The notes under the pieces were generated by a model that did no database searches, was not told the origin of the DNA, and saw only the letters and a program-made list of their open reading frames with translations. DNA of 64,000 nt from Patescibacteria group bacterium (lineage in GTDB: Bacteria; Patescibacteriota; Minisyncoccia; Phycocordibacterales; Phycocordibacteraceae), in the NCBI GenBank assembly GCA_038062175.1, contig JBBTXR010000001.1, positions 9,420 to 73,419 on the forward strand, written 5' to 3'. This document shows positions 52,287-64,000 of this stretch, piece after piece. How positions within the stretch are numbered: the stretch's first letter is position 1; every line of letters begins with the position of its first letter. The position numbers were made by a program, and so were the translations under genes.

Positions 52287-52315
52287 TTGCATTAATCTAG
52301 GCCTTTCTATATAGT
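52287..52315 (+). promoter_or_regulatory. Sigma-70-like promoter upstream of rpsL (TTGCAT-N17-TATAGT)
   Basis: Near-consensus -35 and -10 with 17-bp spacing, about 36 nt upstream of the rpsL ATG. Confidence 0.5.
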
Positions 52316-52351
52316 GTGCCTAACTCCCACGGGGGAGTTTTCATTTACGAC

Positions 52352-52762
52352 ATGGCAACCATCCAGCAGCTGACAAAGTCTCCTCGGAGCAAGAACAAGC
52401 GAAAATCAAAAGTCGTGGCTCTTGGTCGTGGTTTCAACACCTTGAAGAATCGTCCAACCTTCTACCCAGCGCCATTTAAGCGCGGTGTTTGTGTGAAGGT
52501 GACGACGAAAACCCCCCGCAAGCCTAACTCGGCTATTCGTAAGATCGCCCGTGTCCGCCTTACTAACGGTATGGAGGTTACTGCCTACATCCCAGGTGAG
52601 GGTCACAACCTCCAGGAGCACTCAGTGGTCATGCTCCGTGGTGGTCGCGTGAAGGACATTGGTGTCCAGTACACCATCGTTCGTGGACGCCTTGATACCG
52701 CCGGTCTTGATAAGCGTCGCCGTGGTCGCTCACGTTATGGTGCTAAGCGCCCGAAGGCATAA
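52352..52762 (+). CDS. rpsL: 30S ribosomal protein S12
   Basis: S12 signature (PKKPNSALRK-like: [20 protein letters not shown]). Start at MATIQQL. Confidence 0.9.
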
Positions 52763-53573: not shown

Positions 53574-54041
53574 ATGAAACAATCTCCACGCGGATTCACG
53601 CTTATTGAGCTCCTGGTCGTCATTGCGATCATCGGGATCCTGTCTTCGGTCGTGCTCGCGTCATTGAATGTGGCGCGTAACCGGGCGAATGACGCAAAGA
53701 GAAAGTCTGACGCAGGTCAACTTGTTCGGGCAATCGCTAACTTCTACAGCACTAACGGTTCACTTCCGCAGGTTACTAACTTCTGCTCAACGGTGACGCA
53801 TACGACGGGTGGCCCGCTTCTTACGTCAGACCTGGTGCCAGGCTATATAGCAAAGCTTTCAAGTGATCCGACTCGTGGGGGTGGGGCAGGTGACTATATC
53901 TACAGAAATAGAGATGATCATAATGGCGGATATACGGTGTGCGCTGCTCTTGAAACCGATCCGGGTACGGAGGAGCCTTCTGATATGTCGTCATGTGCAG
54001 GTTGGTCGGCTTCGTATAACCACTGTATTACGCAGCGGTAA
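53574..54041 (+). CDS. Type IV major pilin (PilA-like), inside the str operon
   Basis: Classic prepilin N-terminus ([26 protein letters not shown]) and a C-terminal Cys pair. Confidence 0.85.
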
Positions 54042-56650: not shown

Positions 56651-57523
56651 CTATGTTCTTTTATATGCCTCTCGTAACGCAACTACGTCGTCACTTACGT
56701 TCTTCAGCGTAGGAACGAGGTGGTCGTAGAGTATATCGATGAGTTTGAATGTCTCTTCGAAAGCAGTGCGAGATTGAGGGAGGCTATGGAGTGAGAAGAT
56801 GTAGATCTTTGTTCCTACACACTCAAATCCATACGAGCCAAACGAATCCATATATGAGGCCATGAATGCAGGATCCAGCACCGTGAGTGCCTCCACTTCC
56901 ATCTCGTGAGAGGTGTACACATCAAATTGGTCATTAAATGGTCCTTCAAGCCGAAGGATTCTTGTTCCATGAGGGCTCCAATCTCTAGCTCCACTCCAAC
57001 GTTTTGGTCGCACTAGCAGATCGAGCATGGGAACTGCGCACTCTACCTCCCATACGAGCATCTGATGATATGTCCTGTGCTTGTGGCTACCGGTGGTGTA
57101 GTGGAAGGTGAAGAAGCGTGTCGGACGACCTTCGTAGGTTCCTGAGAACACGTCGGCGAGTCTGCGACTGTGCCCGAATGAAAAGATCTGTCCGGTAACG
57201 GTATTCATGGCAGCGGATTCGCTGTACGCGAAGCCGTAGGATGCGGCAATCTCCTTATAAAATTGTTTCTGGACGACACGTCGCGCAAGTCCGTATGCAA
57301 TCAAAAAGGGTGCGATAGGTAACGAAAGTACGAGGACCACACCCGTTGCGTTGCTTACGAAGGTTTCTAGAGATCCTAGTGCGAATGCGGCTACGACGAG
57401 CCCTGCAATAGCACAGAGTTCAAAGACTATGGCGATAGTGGCGAGTACCTGTGTCCGTCTGCGGTGTGTCACCCACAGATGCGTCATAAGGGCATCCTCA
57501 ACGCTTTCTATGCGAGATTCCAT
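56651..57523 (-). CDS. Hypothetical membrane protein (2 N-terminal TM helices plus cytoplasmic domain) between fusA and tuf
   Basis: 290-aa ORF on the opposite strand to the ribosomal cluster. Confidence 0.5.
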   Translation of the reverse strand: MESRIESVEDALMTHLWVTHRRRTQVLATIAIVFELCAIAGLVVAAFALGSLETFVSNATGVVLVLSLPIAPFLIAYGLARRVVQKQFYKEIAASYGFAYSESAAMNTVTGQIFSFGHSRRLADVFSGTYEGRPTRFFTFHYTTGSHKHRTYHQMLVWEVECAVPMLDLLVRPKRWSGARDWSPHGTRILRLEGPFNDQFDVYTSHEMEVEALTVLDPAFMASYMDSFGSYGFECVGTKIYIFSLHSLPQSRTAFEETFKLIDILYDHLVPTLKNVSDDVVALREAYKRT

Positions 57524-57622: not shown

Positions 57623-57859
57623 ATGGCAACCTATTTCTTCGAGACGATCACAGACGGACAGGCACTGAGATTCAATGATGATGACGTACTCGTCTTCGGG
57701 GCAGTCAACAATGATCGATTTCCCTTCAGCGAGGTCTGCATCTTGGCTCGACCGCGACTTCCAGCACCGCCACCCGTACTCGGCAAACGGCTCCTGATGA
57801 CGCAGACGGTGCTCCGCAGACCTGAACTGTGGCAGAAAAGGACACGAGGCGACCCCTAG
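57623..57859 (+). CDS. Small hypothetical protein with strong SD and its own terminator
   Basis: AGGAGGAAGG sits 5 nt upstream of the ATG. 78 aa. The stop is embedded in a GC hairpin terminator. Confidence 0.45.
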   Translation: MATYFFETITDGQALRFNDDDVLVFGAVNNDRFPFSEVCILARPRLPAPPPVLGKRLLMTQTVLRRPELWQKRTRGDP

Positions 57860-59312: not shown

Positions 59313-59678
59313 ATGGCAACCGCAACTAAGAAAGTATCCAAGAAGAAGGTCGCTGAGGCAGGTCCTGCCGCAGAGCCCAAGCTTCGCATCCGTGTGCGCG
59401 CCTACGAGCACAAGATTCTCGACCTTTCGGTGAAGCAGATCATGGATACGGCTAATCGCTTCGATGCGAAAATCGTCGGTCCGATCCCGCTCCCGACCGA
59501 GATCAAGCGCTGGACCGTGAACCGCTCCACGTTCGTGCACAAGGACGCACGCGAGCAGTTCGAGATGCGCATCCACAAGCGCCTCATCGACATCATGTCG
59601 CCGAACCCTAAGGTTATCGAGGCTCTCACGAACCTCAACCTTCCTTCAGGAGTCACGATTGATGTGAAGATGGCGTAA
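59313..59678 (+). CDS. rpsJ: 30S ribosomal protein S10
   Basis: S10 core (RIRVRAYEHKILD...KDAREQFEMRIHKRLIDI) with a Lys/Ala-rich N-terminal extension. Possible alternative TTG start at 59304. Confidence 0.9.
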   Translation: MATATKKVSKKKVAEAGPAAEPKLRIRVRAYEHKILDLSVKQIMDTANRFDAKIVGPIPLPTEIKRWTVNRSTFVHKDAREQFEMRIHKRLIDIMSPNPKVIEALTNLNLPSGVTIDVKMA

Positions 59679-59695
59679 GTCAAAAGATGCAAAGC

Positions 59696-59726
59696 AAAGC
59701 GCCCCGAAAGGGGCGTTTTGCTTTTG
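59696..59726 (+). terminator. Hairpin H1 of a conserved terminator-like repeat family (after rpsJ)
   Basis: aaagcgcccc-gaaa-ggggcgtttt followed by GCTTTTG. Shares the GGGGCGTTTTGCTTTT tail with H2-H4. Confidence 0.7.
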
Positions 59727-59764
59727 TCTGTCGCTAATGATTATCTATCGATAGGAGGTGTCTC

Positions 59765-60040
59765 ATGTTCTTGATCTATTTTTTATCTCCCCATGAAAGG
59801 TGGCGGCGATTCTGTGAAAGAAATCGTGAGTTCCAGCGGGCGCGTCGTAGATGGTTGCGGCAAACTCCTGGCACGCCAGAGGAGAGAGCTGCGGGCAGAG
59901 AACTGAGTCGAATTAGAAAGAAGCTTCACCGACTTGGGGCATCGCTCGGTATGGCAGAAGTCGCCACTGAGCTCCTGCTTCCGCGGGAGTTTCGTTCACG
60001 CGGCACGCCCCCGATTCCCAGGTGGATTCTTGCACGTTAG
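59765..60040 (+). CDS. Array ORF A: 91-aa Arg-rich hypothetical protein
   Basis: GGAGGTG SD 4 nt upstream of the ATG. Bounded by hairpins H1 and H2. Confidence 0.5.
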   Translation: MFLIYFLSPHERWRRFCERNREFQRARRRWLRQTPGTPEERAAGRELSRIRKKLHRLGASLGMAEVATELLLPREFRSRGTPPIPRWILAR

Positions 60041-60047
60041 TTAGCAA

Positions 60048-60078
60048 GGGCGCCTCGGAAACGGGGCGTTTTGCTTTT
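60048..60078 (+). terminator. Hairpin H2 of the repeat family
   Basis: gggcgcctcg-gaaa-cggggcg followed by TTTTGCTTTT. Confidence 0.7.
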
Positions 60079-60125
60079 ATATATTTATGTGTTATTATTG
60101 ACCTGAATTATTTGGAGGTCTTTAG

Positions 60126-60434
60126 ATGAGCACGTTTTGGGTTTCTGAAGCAGTGATCAAGGAGACGGTTCGGAAATACCAACTTCCCGAACACGAGGTC
60201 AGATGCCGGTTCATTCAGATTGATGGGTACCTGAAGGACGCGACCAGGTTGAGCGATGCAACGCTCAAGAGCACGATGTGGGACTATCGCCTCCGTGGAG
60301 ATCACTACCAGGCCTCACTTCTCTGGACGGTCTGGACCTGTAGAGCCTTGGGCTTCACGGAACAAGAGATGGTCGACCTGATCATCCCACTGACGGTCTA
60401 CCCAGCTGATGACCTGGTTCAAAGGGTCGCGTAG
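60126..60434 (+). CDS. Array ORF B: 102-aa hypothetical protein
   Basis: GGAGGT SD 6 nt upstream of the ATG. Bounded by H2 and H3. Confidence 0.5.
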   Translation: MSTFWVSEAVIKETVRKYQLPEHEVRCRFIQIDGYLKDATRLSDATLKSTMWDYRLRGDHYQASLLWTVWTCRALGFTEQEMVDLIIPLTVYPADDLVQRVA

Positions 60435-60452
60435 TCCCTCAAGATCAACGTG

Positions 60453-60485
60453 CGACGCCTCGAGCAATCGGGGCGTTTTGCTTTT
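60453..60485 (+). terminator. Hairpin H3 of the repeat family
   Basis: gcgacgcctcg-agcaat-cggggcg followed by TTTTGCTTTT. Confidence 0.7.
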
Positions 60486-60528
60486 ACCCATGCGCATGCG
60501 ATAGTCGCCACAGAAGAGGAGGTGATCC

Positions 60529-60927
60529 ATGACTGGATTCATCAAGACGCACGAGCGACTGTCAGCATTTGCGGAAGTGATCAAGCCGAGACATATCGCG
60601 GTTCCTTTCCACGCCTTCGGCAAGGCGGAGATCGACGAGAATGCAGGTCACCTCGTGAGTTTCTTCCAGGAGCAAGACGCATGGGTGCCGTTCGAAATGT
60701 CGGCCTTCAAGGAGTTTTGCACACGCTTCAGGCCGAATGGCAGTCCCATCTTCTACGGTCTTGTCGGTGACGGGTTCGATGAGGGTGATCCTACTATCCA
60801 TTACGATCCGCATCTCATCCGGCTTCTCGATGATGGTCGATTGATTGTGACCGACCGATTCATCCTCCGTTGTAGCGGCATGAGTTCGGATCGGATTAGC
60901 GGTCTGACGCGAGAAATTGCAGCCTGA
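60529..60927 (+). CDS. Array ORF C: 132-aa acidic hypothetical protein
   Basis: GGAGGTG SD 4 nt upstream of the ATG. Bounded by H3 and H4. Confidence 0.5.
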   Translation: MTGFIKTHERLSAFAEVIKPRHIAVPFHAFGKAEIDENAGHLVSFFQEQDAWVPFEMSAFKEFCTRFRPNGSPIFYGLVGDGFDEGDPTIHYDPHLIRLLDDGRLIVTDRFILRCSGMSSDRISGLTREIAA

Positions 60928-60934
60928 TCCTAAG

Positions 60935-60967
60935 CGACGCCCCGAGCAATCGGGGCGTTTTGCTTTT
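60935..60967 (+). terminator. Hairpin H4 of the repeat family
   Basis: gcgacgccccg-agcaat-cggggcg followed by TTTTGCTTTT. Near-identical to H3. Confidence 0.7.
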
Positions 60968-61023
60968 CTCTTCATGTGAAATGCGATATTCTCATCCTCT
61001 GTTCTTTCGAAAGGAGGTGATAT

Positions 61024-61406
61024 TCGTGAGCAGAAGACCAATCGGATCTCGTGTCCTGTGGGGTGAAGCTAGGAGTGCTGCACAACATCTCGATGCTGCG
61101 ATGGTTCAGTTTTACCCTGATCCTACAACGTATAAAGGATTTGACGGTAAGCTAGACGATTCCAGTCTTCCCCAAAAGAAGAACTTCGCGCGTTGGAAAC
61201 GTCCAAAGCGTAAGGATGGAACCCGTAAACGGGGAACTCAAGTTCGGCCTCTCGTCATTCGCGAAATCAGAAACGCGAAGGATGAGAAGGGAAGATCGGT
61301 GCGTGGGAGATTCGTCTCTCTTGCTGACTACGAGCAACGCGCTGCGAAATACCGTGAAGATGTGAAGAAATATTTTGAAGAAAACAAGAGGCGGTCGCGG
61401 AGATAG
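61024..61406 (+). CDS. Array ORF D: 127-aa Lys/Arg-rich hypothetical protein (GTG start)
   Basis: GGAGGTG SD 6 nt upstream of the GTG at 61024. The ORF-track ATG at 60960 lies inside hairpin H4 and lacks an SD. A GC hairpin (ggtcgcgg...ccgcgacc) overlaps the 3' end. Confidence 0.45.
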
Positions 61407-61418
61407 GTCCGCGACCGT

Positions 61419-61452
61419 AACGCCCTCGAGCAATCGAGGCGTTTTCTTTTCC
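61419..61452 (+). terminator. Hairpin H5 of the repeat family (compensatory variant)
   Basis: acgccctcg-agcaat-cgaggcgt followed by TTTTCTTTT. The stem keeps base pairing through paired substitutions relative to H3/H4. Confidence 0.65.
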
Positions 61453-61520
61453 ATAGATACAAATTACGGTATGCTCTTCGTCTGTTCCTTGTTCTAGAAA
61501 CGAGATTAGGGGAGTCGATA

Positions 61521-61652
61521 GTGACGAAAAAGATCAAGAAAGAATTGAGCGCCGAGGAGCGCAGAGATTGGCGGGAAAACAGTCAGAATGCAGCGCCCAA
61601 ACCGCCGGTAGGGGTCCTCAAAGATCTCAAAGAGTCTAACCCTCGTGATTGA
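61521..61652 (+). CDS. Array ORF E: 43-aa basic peptide (GTG start)
   Basis: GGGGAG SD 5 nt upstream of the GTG. Followed by a distinct GC hairpin terminator. Not in the ORF track. Confidence 0.3.
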   Translation: MTKKIKKELSAEERRDWRENSQNAAPKPPVGVLKDLKESNPRD

Positions 61653-61661
61653 GTGCTCAGT

Positions 61662-61697
61662 GGCCGCCTCGCAAGGGCGGCCTCCATTTTATTCTTG
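61662..61697 (+). terminator. Rho-independent terminator after ORF E
   Basis: ggccgcc-tcgcaag-ggcggcc followed by tccattttattcttg. Confidence 0.65.
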
Positions 61698-61984
61698 CGG
61701 TATATCTAACTCTGCGTTTAAATAGATGAAGGTGCTCTTTGTGCCACACGCCGCAAACGCGGCGATTCCGCGTTTCTACGAGGGGTTTGTGTGTTTCGAA
61801 GACTGCAAATGCGAGTCGAACAACGGCTAGTCGATCTTGAGTGTGAGCATCGTGTTGTGAAGCGCTTCTCGCACGTTGCGAGACATCCGAGCGATATACA
61901 GTATCGACGCGCGTTCTGGTACTTCGTATGCAGATGCTTCGGCATCTGCCCAGAAAAAACGCTCGCAGGAGCGTAAAAGAGAAT

Positions 61985-62021
61985 GGGCTCCGCGATTTCT
62001 CGCGGAGCCCTTCTTGGTTTG
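61985..62021. terminator. Bidirectional terminator at the end of the antisense membrane-protein gene
   Basis: gggctccgcg-atttct-cgcggagccc 10-bp stem with T-rich flanks on both strands. Confidence 0.7.
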
Positions 62022-62063
62022 ACCTATCAGTTGGTGGCTAGCGACACCCTGTGTCTCAGATGA

Positions 62064-62678
62064 CTACATCGCGTCGAGAAGATCGTCTTCCGTGTTCCAG
62101 GCGCCGATATAGACGCGATCGAAGCCTCGAACGGCGAGAACGAACGGATCCTTGAGTGTATATTCGACGAGCACATACGCTCCGGCTGCTTCTGCCGCCC
62201 TGATCCTTCGATCGAAGCGCGCTGGCGGCTCGATGATCCAATCCTTTCGTGCCGCTGATAGGTGCAGCTGCCGCCAGCTCCAGGTGGTTCTCGGACCTTT
62301 CCGCTCCGCATAGATCCATAGGCAGAACGTTAGAATGCAGCCGATGGCGGGAGTGAGAAGGAGAGCCGCGTGTAGTTGCAGACCAGGCATCGAAAGACAG
62401 GCCAAGCCGGCAACAGTCATCGCGACGACGACGTAGAGATAGTTGTTCGAGTACTGCCGGCCGGTGTACCGCTCGATTATCCTCGGCACGAAGTAGAGTC
62501 TCGGTAGCCAGAGCAGGTAGTAGAGGGTCTGGAGCAAGGCTGGCAATCGGTCCTTGCGCTGATGTGCCTGCACGAGGTGCTTTGGAATAACCGGCACCCC
62601 TTGTGCACGCAGCTCGCTCTCAAGCTTGCTGCAGGTTCTTGCGCCCTTCTCGAAGGCGCGTACTGCATCCATCTTCAT
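62064..62678 (-). CDS. Hypothetical membrane protein, antisense to the ribosomal cluster
   Basis: Two or three TM helices (YLYVVVAMTVAGLACL, LLLTPAIGCILTFCLWIY). Start chosen at the Met preceded by AGAGGT SD (62678). The ORF-track maximal extent to 62996 would overlap rplC. Confidence 0.5.
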   Translation of the reverse strand: MKMDAVRAFEKGARTCSKLESELRAQGVPVIPKHLVQAHQRKDRLPALLQTLYYLLWLPRLYFVPRIIERYTGRQYSNNYLYVVVAMTVAGLACLSMPGLQLHAALLLTPAIGCILTFCLWIYAERKGPRTTWSWRQLHLSAARKDWIIEPPARFDRRIRAAEAAGAYVLVEYTLKDPFVLAVRGFDRVYIGAWNTEDDLLDAM

Positions 62679-62772
62679 GAGAACCTCTAGTGCTATGGGG
62701 GAGAGGCACCCAATGTGCTTCTCCAGAACTCCCGTGGTAGTTGTAGCCGGAAAGCCTCGTAGAGACAAGAAG

Positions 62773-62801
62773 TTGCATTGCCTGAAGGCTTCGTGTAGAG
62801 T
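62773..62801 (+). promoter_or_regulatory. Sigma-70-like promoter for rplC-rplD (TTGCAT-N17-TAGAGT) with a structured ~90-nt leader
   Basis: Same architecture as the rpsL promoter. Leader contains GC hairpins (cccctcgggg, ggccgggaagcccttcgggg) before the rplC ATG. Confidence 0.45.
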
Positions 62802-62892
62802 GCCCCTATCGCTACGTATCCCCTCGGGGAGACCAATGGCCGGGAAGCCCTTCGGGGACGAACGCGCTGTTGAGGCGCGCTTTATTTTTTTC

Positions 62893-63504
62893 ATGAAATT
62901 CCTACTCGCCAAGAAAGGTCGTATGACCCAGATCTTCGATACCGATGGTCGGGTCTTTGCTGGTACCGTCCTTACGACTGCTCCGATGACCGTCACCCAG
63001 GTGAAGACGGTTGAGTCTGACGGGTATGAGGCGGTTCAGGTTGGTTTTGGCGAGAAGAAGGAGAGTCGCGTGAATAAGGCCGTCCTTGGACACACCAAGG
63101 GTAAGGGCTTCCAGACCATCAAGGAGTTCCGCACCGAAGCAGGAGACCTTGCGGTAGGTTCTGAGGTAACCGCAGACACCTTCGCTGAGGGTGATGTGGT
63201 TGAAGTCTCGGGCACCGTGAAGGGTAGGGGCTTTGCCGGAGTGGTGAAGCGCCATGGTTTCCATGGTGGTCGTCGCTCGCATGGTCAGAAGCACTCTGAG
63301 CGTGAGCCAGGATCGATTGGTGGCGGTGGTCGTGCCGGTGGTCGCGTCGCTAAGGGTATGCGCATGGGTGGCCGCATGGGTGGTAACCGCATCACGGTAA
63401 CCAACCTCAAGGTGCTCAAGGTCGATGCAGCTCGCGGCGAGATCATCATCTCAGGAGCCGTTCCTGGCGCTCCTGGTTCACTCGTCGAGATCGTCTCGAA
63501 ATAA
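62893..63504 (+). CDS. rplC: 50S ribosomal protein L3
   Basis: L3 N-terminus (MKFLLAKKGRMTQIFD) and a Gly-rich C-terminal region. The ORF-track start at 62626 is a spurious upstream extension. Confidence 0.9.
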   Translation: MKFLLAKKGRMTQIFDTDGRVFAGTVLTTAPMTVTQVKTVESDGYEAVQVGFGEKKESRVNKAVLGHTKGKGFQTIKEFRTEAGDLAVGSEVTADTFAEGDVVEVSGTVKGRGFAGVVKRHGFHGGRRSHGQKHSEREPGSIGGGGRAGGRVAKGMRMGGRMGGNRITVTNLKVLKVDAARGEIIISGAVPGAPGSLVEIVSK

Positions 63505-63515
63505 ATTTACGTACT

Positions 63516-64000
63516 ATGGCACCAGCTAAGAAAACCGTCGCAAAGAAGGCCGCTCCTAAGAAGGCAGTTGCTGCAAAGGCAACAGCTCCTAAGAAGGCAG
63601 TTGCATCTGAAGCGAATATTTACACCATGGCAGGGGGAGAGGCGGGTACTATCGCACTTCCTGCGGAGCTTTTCGCACAGCCTTGGAAGGCAGATCTCGT
63701 GCACCAGGTAGTTATCGGTATGCAGGCAAACGCACGCCCAACGGTCGCGAACACCAAGTTCCGCGGCGAAGTTGCTGGTGGTGGTAAGAAGCCATGGAAG
63801 CAGAAGGGTACTGGTCGCGCACGACACGGCTCTAACCGCTCTCCTATCTGGAAGGGAGGTGGTGTGACCCATGGTCCTCGCGCAGAGCGCGTCTACGCCG
63901 TGAAGATCAACCGCAAGATGCGTGCCGCAGCGCTTGCCTCTGTGCTCTCACGCAAGTGGGCAGATGGTCAGATTGTCTTCGTTGATTCTCTCGCGTTCAC
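63516..64000 (+). CDS. rplD: 50S ribosomal protein L4 (3'-truncated by the window end)
   Basis: Lys/Ala-rich N-terminal extension followed by L4 core motifs (KPWKQKGTGRARHGS...PIWKGGG). Confidence 0.9.
   Translation, partial: MAPAKKTVAKKAAPKKAVAAKATAPKKAVASEANIYTMAGGEAGTIALPAELFAQPWKADLVHQVVIGMQANARPTVANTKFRGEVAGGGKKPWKQKGTGRARHGSNRSPIWKGGGVTHGPRAERVYAVKINRKMRAAALASVLSRKWADGQIVFVDSLAF

Follow-up and report, generated by a model that had tools for sequence, protein, structure and literature searches.

The 64-kb stretch of DNA analysed here (the window) belongs to a groundwater Patescibacteria genome, and its last 12 kb carry the genes rpsL-rpsG-(pilin-like open reading frame, ORF)-fusA-(two ORFs)-tuf-rpsJ, followed by rplC-rplD. 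The genes rpsJ and rplC are normally an inviolate pair; here they are separated by a 3.2-kb non-ribosomal stretch (59679-62892), which includes a minus-strand gene for a membrane protein and ends in a promoter and a short structured leader directly before rplC (Table 1). The features lie within 1-2 nt of where a preliminary description of this DNA had placed them. The promoter and the leader, together spanning 62773 to 62892, are the main subject of this study, and we put at roughly 0.6 the probability that they act as a transcription attenuator of the rplC-rplD-rplW-rplB operon.

Table 1. Features of the rpsJ-rplC junction in the window, listed by position.
Feature	Coordinates	Strand	Evidence or remarks
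Bidirectional intrinsic-terminator hairpin	61985..62010	both	11-pair stem, 9 G-C
204-aa membrane-protein gene (P0001)	62064..62678	-	same 204-aa call in NCBI/ENA; homologues; hydropathy
Shine-Dalgarno (SD) sequence AGAGGT, 4 nt before ATG 62678	62683..62688 (complement)	-	read from sequence
Candidate rplC operon promoter: -35 TTGCAT (62773-62778), 17-nt spacer, -10 TAGAGT (62796-62801)	62773..62801	+	motif conserved in relatives
Sensor hairpin GCUA-c-GU-a-UCCC-cucg-GGGA-g-AC-caa-UGGC	62811..62840	+	minimum free energy (MFE) fold; pair conservation
Segment a, GCUA	62811..62814	+	pairs with UGGC (62837-62840), the 3' strand of the a:b helix
Variable apical stem-loop of the sensor, UCCC-cucg-GGGA	62819..62830	+	~97% paired
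Segment b, CAAUGGCCG	62834..62842	+	pairs with a, or with the terminator 5' arm and loop
P2 hairpin CCC-uucg-GGG, sequence and length varying among relatives	62848..62857	+	all 4 pairs with compensatory changes
Predicted intrinsic terminator/attenuator: stem CGCGCU-guuga-GGCGCG (62863-62879), then CUUUAUUUUUUUC (62880-62892)	62863..62892	+	terminator scan; covariation
rplC (uL3), 203 aa, starting MKFLLAKKGRMTQIF, no SD	62893..63504	+	Pfam Ribosomal_L3; homology in 80 relatives

A search of the 64 kb for TTGCAT-N17-TAKAGT, with one mismatch allowed, returned two matches, both exact, against 0.38 expected. The second (52287-52315) lies immediately 5' of rpsL, which bears out the rpsL-like architecture that the preliminary description had seen in the rplC promoter. 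For comparison, 80 GTDB genomes were fetched by L3 similarity (52-77% identity) and their rpsJ-rplC spacers measured; TTGCAT-N17-TA[G/T]AGT is present in 31 of these 80 loci, mostly ~77-120 nt before the ATG and in a few cases up to 193 nt before it, and the distance from promoter to leader is constant across relatives. A generic promoter scan misses the motif (7/12 matches), the consensus used being that of E. coli. TTGCAT-N17-TAGAGT is thus, by its conservation, a real promoter candidate, with a predicted transcription start site (TSS) near A62808.

The leader is ~85 nt long, and its last base (62892) adjoins the ATG of rplC. The hairpins that had led to its description as rich in GC hairpins were recovered, including the terminator-like one. 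The MFE fold of the window's leader consists of the sensor and the terminator, with P2 absent, and represents the terminator (OFF) fold. The sensor contains an internal loop (C/CAA), G-U/A-C pairs and a conserved A.G mismatch. Segment c is the 5' arm and loop of the terminator, CGCGCUGUUG (62863-62872), and segment d its 3' arm, GGCGCG, from the end of which 13 nt lead to the rplC AUG. In the antiterminator fold, the conserved word CCAAUGGCCG is paired with CGCGCUGUUG, C62833 of this word staying unpaired and CAAUGGCCG being paired, while CGCU (62810-62813) pairs with the terminator 3' arm. P2 does appear when the antiterminator is enforced, as well as in the RNAalifold consensus, and for ten close relatives RNAalifold returns the antiterminator fold itself, with P2 at the tip of the b:c helix. 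As computed, the terminator and antiterminator folds are mutually exclusive.

More than 130 relatives share this leader, the sequence and structure of which are kept down to rplC identities of ~53-60%. In the closest relatives, the conserved block 5' of rplC is composed of TTGCAT-N17-TA(G/T)AGT, 9 nt, GCUA-N-G(U/A)AC, a variable hairpin, GG(A/U)CC(A/U)AUGGC, a second variable hairpin, ACGCGCYRUUG...GCGCGC with a U-run, and then AUG AAA UU(C/U). When a covariance model built on the entire leader (R1) was run on the 64 kb, it gave a single copy (62802-62895, 90.5 bits); in the 80 genome loci, every significant hit of the model (E <= 0.01) lies immediately 5' of rplC. Metagenomes were searched on both strands with a gene-blind pattern that described the -10 box and sensor only, GCCATWGGNCCN{4,30}GNNCDTAGCN9ACTMTA. 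This returned 111 contigs, in which no downstream gene other than rplC was seen: rplC lies 41-178 nt downstream in all 107 untruncated contigs, and the other 4 end within 68 nt.

Pair conservation was assessed in three pair-count tests, for which slid controls gave 30-46% pairing overall. In an alignment of 28 sequences fitted to the covariance model, 93.4% of cells are paired and 14 of the 20 pairs display compensatory changes, values that none of 500 shuffles equalled; slid controls gave 32-46%. The leaders fall into two types, type I, which includes that of the window, and type II, found in Kaiserbacteria-like relatives. For 50 type I leaders aligned blind to structure with MAFFT, the terminator fold is 96.5% paired; within it, the apical sensor helix (~97%) has compensatory changes at 5 of 6 pairs, among them U:A in 43 sequences and A:U in 7, and the terminator stem (94.7%) covaries at two pairs. 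The antiterminator fold is 94.7% paired in this alignment and comprises the a:d pairing (99.5%) and the b:c helix (91%), in which two pairs covary (A:U x40 / U:A x4; G:C x33 / A:U x3 / C:G x2). In columns that serve both folds, the only changes seen are ones that either fold accepts (column 91 U/C, column 101 A/G). In an independent RNAduplex scan of 57 leaders (55 type I and two type II-like), the variable base of b was paired as predicted in 49; when the variable base of CCWAUGGC is matched to the terminator loop, 43 of 46 leaders with W=A are paired and 6 of the 9 type I leaders with W=U. A strict test for a hairpin followed by a T-run is passed by 90 of 103 unique leaders, and the median distance between the end of the stem and the AUG is 14.5 nt.

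The energies of the two folds of the window's leader are -30.0 kcal/mol for the terminator and -27.1 kcal/mol for the enforced antiterminator, so that the folding model gives them nearly equal energy, as expected of a switch. The 72-nt nascent transcript, before the 3' arm is made, folds as the antiterminator. Among 57 type I leaders, 30 have the antiterminator and 26 the closed sensor as the MFE fold of the nascent transcript.

Two features of the r-protein-leader class are present, a covariation-supported structure in the 5' untranslated region and the exclusive association with rplC (107/107), as are two features of an attenuator, a terminator between predicted TSS and ORF and, in type I leaders, a conserved pairing that excludes the terminator. 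That the leader is a conserved cis-regulatory element bearing a terminator is very probable, and that it works through an exchange between a:b with c:d and b:c with a:d is likely. In the OFF state, pairing of a with b would close the sensor and pairing of c with d would form the terminator, 13 nt short of the AUG; in the ON state, b would pair with c as the antiterminator and a with d, allowing RNA polymerase to read through. The signal is somewhat more probably an r-protein of the operon than anything else, an assignment made by analogy. The conserved unpaired nucleotides of the sensor (the C/CAA loop and A.G mismatch), together with its free apex, form what in sequence is the signature of a protein-binding site. 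A protein bound to the conserved internal loops of the closed sensor would block strand invasion by c and favour termination, which would fall 1-8 nt before the rplC AUG, and scarcity of the protein would let b:c and a:d form, giving read-through. The outcome would be feedback control of r-protein synthesis. The candidate ligands are uL4, by the precedent of the E. coli S10 leader, and uL3, by position as the product of the first gene. The same fold could also damp translation, because rplC is without an SD and the terminator stem ends so close to its AUG.

Several points weigh against the attenuator reading. The folding energy of the leader is no better than that of shuffled sequences (z = 0.11), and the case for its reality is for this reason built on conservation and covariation. 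The a:b helix, 99% paired in the 50 type I leaders, is invariant and so without covariation support of its own, although segments that must satisfy two pairings would be expected not to vary. GCUA and AUGGC were fixed in the metagenome pattern, so that the invariance of these words among the contigs is partly a matter of construction. The TSS and termination within the leader are predictions. In the nascent fold of type II leaders, a:b is kept in 43 of 46 and the antiterminator is not predicted. The leader can evidently be lost and is dispensable, as in a close relative with an rplC 73.5% identical (L017, 5740-6000), where promoter and sensor are gone, a GGGCGCGTTTTCACTTTTTAC remnant stands before the ATG and ORFs read toward rplC. 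Finally, the best ungapped matches of the sensor to the 16S and 23S rRNA of E. coli are no better than those of shuffled controls (P 0.4-1.0), the rRNA used being that of E. coli and not of the clade, and no rRNA occurs in any fetched relative locus. The 8-9-mer matches at E. coli 23S positions 2703 (GCCAAUGGC, domain VI) and 201 (CUAAGUAC) are within chance. Domain VI is the domain organised by uL3 (PMC9935924); the match of GCCAAUGGC there is not statistically meaningful.

The sensor hairpin is the part common to type I and type II leaders, and the expression platforms differ. By eye, AUGGCAGA of type II leaders pairs with the terminator loop UCUGUCAU and an extension of b pairs with the tail GUUYUGC; the registers of such an antiterminator differ between subgroups, and RNAfold does not favour the pairing. 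In type II leaders such as L101, L134 and L090, the GCAGAAC/GCAAAUC that follows AUGGC is complementary to the terminator loop UCUGYC/UUUUGC and to the tail GUUYUGC/GAUUUGC, and type II changes are correlated, for example column 57 A/U with column 86 U/A. More distant genomes (L065, L075, L077, L084) carry TTGCAT-N17-TATAGT and a variant leader (…CCACGUCC-hairpin-GGACCAAUAGACAAC) ~60-180 nt 5' of rplC. In the first three of these the variant leader runs directly into the AUG with the terminator absent, and it may represent the same sensor core on a translational platform. In "type III" variants, GGACCAAUAG adjoins the AUG and there is no terminator.

The comparison with known r-protein leaders that the preliminary description had proposed gave no Rfam 15 match overlapping the leader, whether at the gathering threshold over the whole window, at E <= 10 on 59600-63100 or at E <= 1 on 11 other leader loci; by these searches the rplC leader is placed outside the E. 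coli S10-leader family and every Rfam 15 family. A search of the searchable literature returned no Patescibacteria or Parcubacteria r-protein leader. The analogy to L4 regulation of the S10 leader that had been drawn earlier is nonetheless reasonable, because the rplC leader is a conserved structured RNA and its terminator immediately precedes the gene. The E. coli S10 leader, which is limited to Gammaproteobacteria, combines attenuation stimulated by L4 and NusA with translational repression (PMC3616713). Like it, the rplC leader is a structured 5' leader of an operon containing rplC-rplD-rplW-rplB, has an intrinsic terminator close to the first ORF and, further upstream, a hairpin required for control, and may have dual effects on transcription and translation. 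In contrast, the two share no homology of sequence or structure, hairpins HD-HG included (no Rfam hit at E <= 10), the S10 leader precedes rpsJ whereas the rplC leader follows rpsJ and its terminator and precedes rplC, and the S10 leader has hairpins HA-HG where the rplC leader has three hairpins and an explicit antiterminator. The L4 r-leader candidate of Archaeoglobi is found upstream of rplC, rplD, rplW and rplB, with L4 the assumed ligand on prior grounds (Eckert and Weinberg 2020; PMC7247131). It resembles the present leader in standing directly before the same genes, but it is archaeal and its motif unrelated, with no Rfam match here. In the B. subtilis L20 leader (infC-rpmI-rplT), an r-protein bound upstream decides between antiterminator and terminator (cited in PMC3616713), and the rplC leader would follow this template of a terminator and antiterminator governed with upstream structure. 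The operon, protein and RNA fold are different, however, and the rRNA mimicry established for L20 has no detectable counterpart here against E. coli rRNA. The four segments are also arranged as in attenuators of the trp type, with 1:2/3:4 opposed to 2:3 there and a:b plus c:d opposed to b:c here; the rplC leader differs in having no conserved leader peptide, an extra a:d pairing that closes the ON fold and a 5'-terminal sensor like a protein site.

Other functions for the leader have less in their favour than the attenuator. It might have no ligand, acting as a constitutive 5' stabiliser, pause or partial terminator that fixes the level of rplC, or be the gene of a stable ~85-nt small RNA (sRNA) that only happens to be located upstream of rplC. 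Its own promoter and terminator would indeed yield a discrete short RNA, and near-isoenergetic folds permit a fixed partition, but the unpaired internal loops are conserved and variation is limited to changes that both folds accept, which argues for a regulated switch with a recognition surface; moreover, rplC has no other promoter in the genomes without inserts, so that read-through must occur. These ligand-free functions are accordingly improbable. Less probable again is a small-molecule or ion riboswitch, responding for example to a growth-rate signal. A conserved sensor attached to a terminator/antiterminator platform is formally riboswitch-like, and the failure to find rRNA mimicry (against E. 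coli rRNA) would suit one. The occurrence of the sensor only upstream of rplC (107/107) and once per 64-kb window speaks against it, as does its form, that of a plain hairpin interrupted by two small internal loops and variable at its apex, which is typical of protein sites and includes no multi-helix junction or pseudoknot pocket.

A further alternative concerns the origin of the element. The preliminary description had proposed that rplC acquired its promoter de novo because the upstream array terminates transcription from rpsJ, and the window by itself gives this some appeal, as the 5-6 terminator-like hairpins between rpsJ and rplC and the convergent minus-strand gene make read-through from rpsJ implausible. 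The relatives tell otherwise. In five of them (L024, L026, L040, L043, L058), the spacer is ~160-220 nt long and the T-run of the rpsJ terminator abuts the -35 box, after which come the promoter and leader and no other content. Likewise, all 107 untruncated metagenome contigs carry the promoter and leader, in rpsJ-rplC gaps of 98 to 2650 nt, and the conservation noted above extends across the same deep divergence of rplC. Overall, promoter and leader are found even at spacers of ~100-220 nt that hold no inserted gene. A de novo or recent origin that restored rplC expression after arrival of a cassette array is hence very improbable. From this distribution, the promoter and leader are judged ancestral to the Paceibacteria/Kaiserbacteria-like clade, and the operon split predates the insertions, since relatives with and without inserts share it. 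The causal order is thus the reverse of that first supposed: the split came first, and insertions were tolerated later.

The rpsJ-rplC spacers of the fetched relatives range from 6 nt to 4.8 kb and are nearly all long in the closest of them. Both genes are present in 63 loci, 19 with the sensor, all of these with spacers of at least 159 nt and 14 of the 19 above 400 nt; in 16 of the 44 that lack the sensor, the spacer does not exceed 20 nt. It is the more likely account that the split makes the rpsJ-rplC junction insertion-tolerant, because transcription is already interrupted there, ending after rpsJ and beginning anew before rplC, and this junction of rpsJ terminator and rplC promoter behaves as an insertion hotspot. 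The ORFs of 24 rpsJ-rplC spacers contain one similar pair only and are otherwise mutually unrelated; those of relatives include an SDR, an NrtR-like NUDIX regulator and a secreted Big_7/PG-binding protein. The insert genes of the window have no homologues in the rpsJ-rplC gaps of 23 relatives.

A bolder proposal, tentative and on present grounds doubtful, joins these strands. The leader would be a hitherto undescribed, Patescibacteria-specific r-protein sensor, the first r-leader of the Candidate Phyla Radiation (CPR), in which a 5' hairpin binds uL3 or uL4 and so flips a four-segment strand exchange, and the terminator-promoter seam that it creates between rpsJ and rplC would be a preferred, possibly site-specific, landing pad for cassettes, each arriving with a copy of the rpsJ-type terminator.

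The position of the rplC start bears on whether part of the leader is coding. Public gene calls give L3 as 222 aa (ATG 62836), or as 263 aa on one Logan contig. ATG 62836 lies inside the conserved RNA word CCAAUGGC, within segment b. Homology of L3 starts at MKF(I/L)LA in all 80 genomes, so the true start is placed at 62893 and the annotated 222-aa start is, on this evidence, an artefact. An SD-like motif 4-16 nt before the AUG occurs in 1 of 103 unique leaders. That 62836-62892 encodes a 19-aa extension of L3, or that the AUG of CCAAUGGC opens a regulatory leader peptide, can be dismissed as exceedingly improbable: gene callers picked this ATG, which in the window is in frame with rplC and has GGGGAG upstream, but across relatives it falls in frames 0, 1 and 2, often before stops, and is absent in some (CCUAUAGC, CCUCCAGC), and the nucleotides concerned are conserved as RNA pairs. 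Both candidates were rejected for this inconsistency of frame; a leader peptide of the trp type was likewise not found, the sole AUG of the leader encoding unrelated peptides. The false N-terminal extension, for which callers use either the AUG of CCAAUGGC or an upstream codon (L001-L005), is likely clade-wide.

The minus-strand gene upstream of the promoter was found as first described, with its AGAGGT SD and bidirectional terminator, the hairpin of which serves the minus-strand gene with the tail ATTCTCTTTT and the plus-strand array with the tail TTCTTGGTTT. Its longest ORF (62064-62996) has a GTG start and a length of 310 aa, and shares 104 nt with rplC. The Met codon inside it at 62678, preferred in the preliminary description, is upheld as the true start because homologues of 199-235 aa align from about residue 16. 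The databases list the 204-aa protein as hypothetical, under a "Patescibacteria group bacterium" metagenome-assembled genome, and contigs carrying it come from 0.1-µm filtrates of Hainich groundwater. In a word-indexed search of 5.8 billion proteins it matched itself only, and an exhaustive HMMER scan of 1.84 billion representatives yielded ~15 remote full-length homologues (E 4e-15 to 3e-4), 24-32% identical over alignments reaching the C terminus; a profile search added three more family members on contigs of ~1.2 kb. The family is marked by an N-terminal motif, L..L...GIPvIP..V..HKR, and a conserved C-terminal domain, DPFLVA.RG...YIGAW.TG..LD, preceded by a hydrophobic middle. Hydropathy indicates strong transmembrane segments at residues 79-99 and 103-124 and a weaker one at 45-67, in agreement with the two to three segments proposed earlier. 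No match was found in Pfam, PHROGs, a PDB sequence profile or, by Foldseek, among PDB folds; the AlphaFold2 model, built on a 4-sequence alignment, is of low confidence (mean predicted local distance difference test score, pLDDT, 61). On the minus strand of 62679-62900, no sigma-70-like TTGnnn-N16-18-TAnnnT promoter was seen for this gene. Judged by its homologues, the gene is genuine and its product a 204-aa member of a small uncharacterised family. It is lineage-specific cargo, and the membrane protein and rplC leader are two unrelated neighbours.

The remainder of the insert, between rpsJ and the minus-strand gene (59679-61700), holds 4-5 small plus-strand ORFs of 91, 102, 132, 126 and 43 aa, none with a match in Pfam. 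Each has a strong SD of the AGGAGG type and is followed by a near-identical terminator hairpin, GACGCCYCGAGCAATCGGGGCGTTTTGCTTTT, the 4 copies being 68-100% identical and resembling the rpsJ terminator; downstream of each terminator is a TTTnnn-N13-17-TAnnnT element that recalls the ancestral seam of terminator and promoter. The array looks, from this repetition, like serial cassette insertion with duplication of the seam.

Non-ribosomal genes occur at every junction of the str/S10/spc cluster of this genome. A type-IV-pilin-like ORF (N_methyl) lies between rpsG and fusA (53574-54041); a 290-aa ORF (56651-57523, minus strand) with a weak DUF3137 match and a 78-aa ORF (57623-57859) lie between fusA and tuf; three genes, one DUF3298 and one with a weak 2OG-FeII_Oxy match, lie between rplB and rpsS (L001 4820-7094); and a 273-aa ORF lies between rplE and rpsN (L001 163-984). 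The starts of rplC (62880-62895), rplD (63505-63520) and rpsL (52340-52355) have no SD and an A/U-rich context, and cargo ORFs have canonical AGGAGG SDs (59745-59767, 60110-60128, 60512-60531); r-protein genes and inserted cargo ORFs appear to use different initiation signals. In the rpsL region (52287-52355), TTGCAT-N17-TATAGT is followed by a short hairpin, ACTCCCacgGGGAGT, then by TTTTCATTT and an SD-less ATG at 52353. The layout is that of rplC (promoter, hairpin with T-run, SD-less start), and the rpsL leader could be a small attenuator as well.

Most of the autoregulatory r-protein leaders known so far come from Proteobacteria and Firmicutes, and in the Patescibacteria/CPR small genomes and unusual ribosomes make ribosome homeostasis an open question. 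The leader described here gives an RNA-protein pair for testing, with more than 130 natural sequence variants in hand. It also corrects a recurrent annotation error, a false N-terminal extension of L3 by 19 aa or more that is caused by a conserved AUG within an RNA motif. The terminator-promoter seam accounts for the 0.1-4.8 kb of unrelated cargo between rpsJ and rplC in this clade, as insertions would be transcriptionally neutral where the operon is already cut. If the bolder proposal holds, cassettes would be accumulating inside the most conserved operon of the genome.

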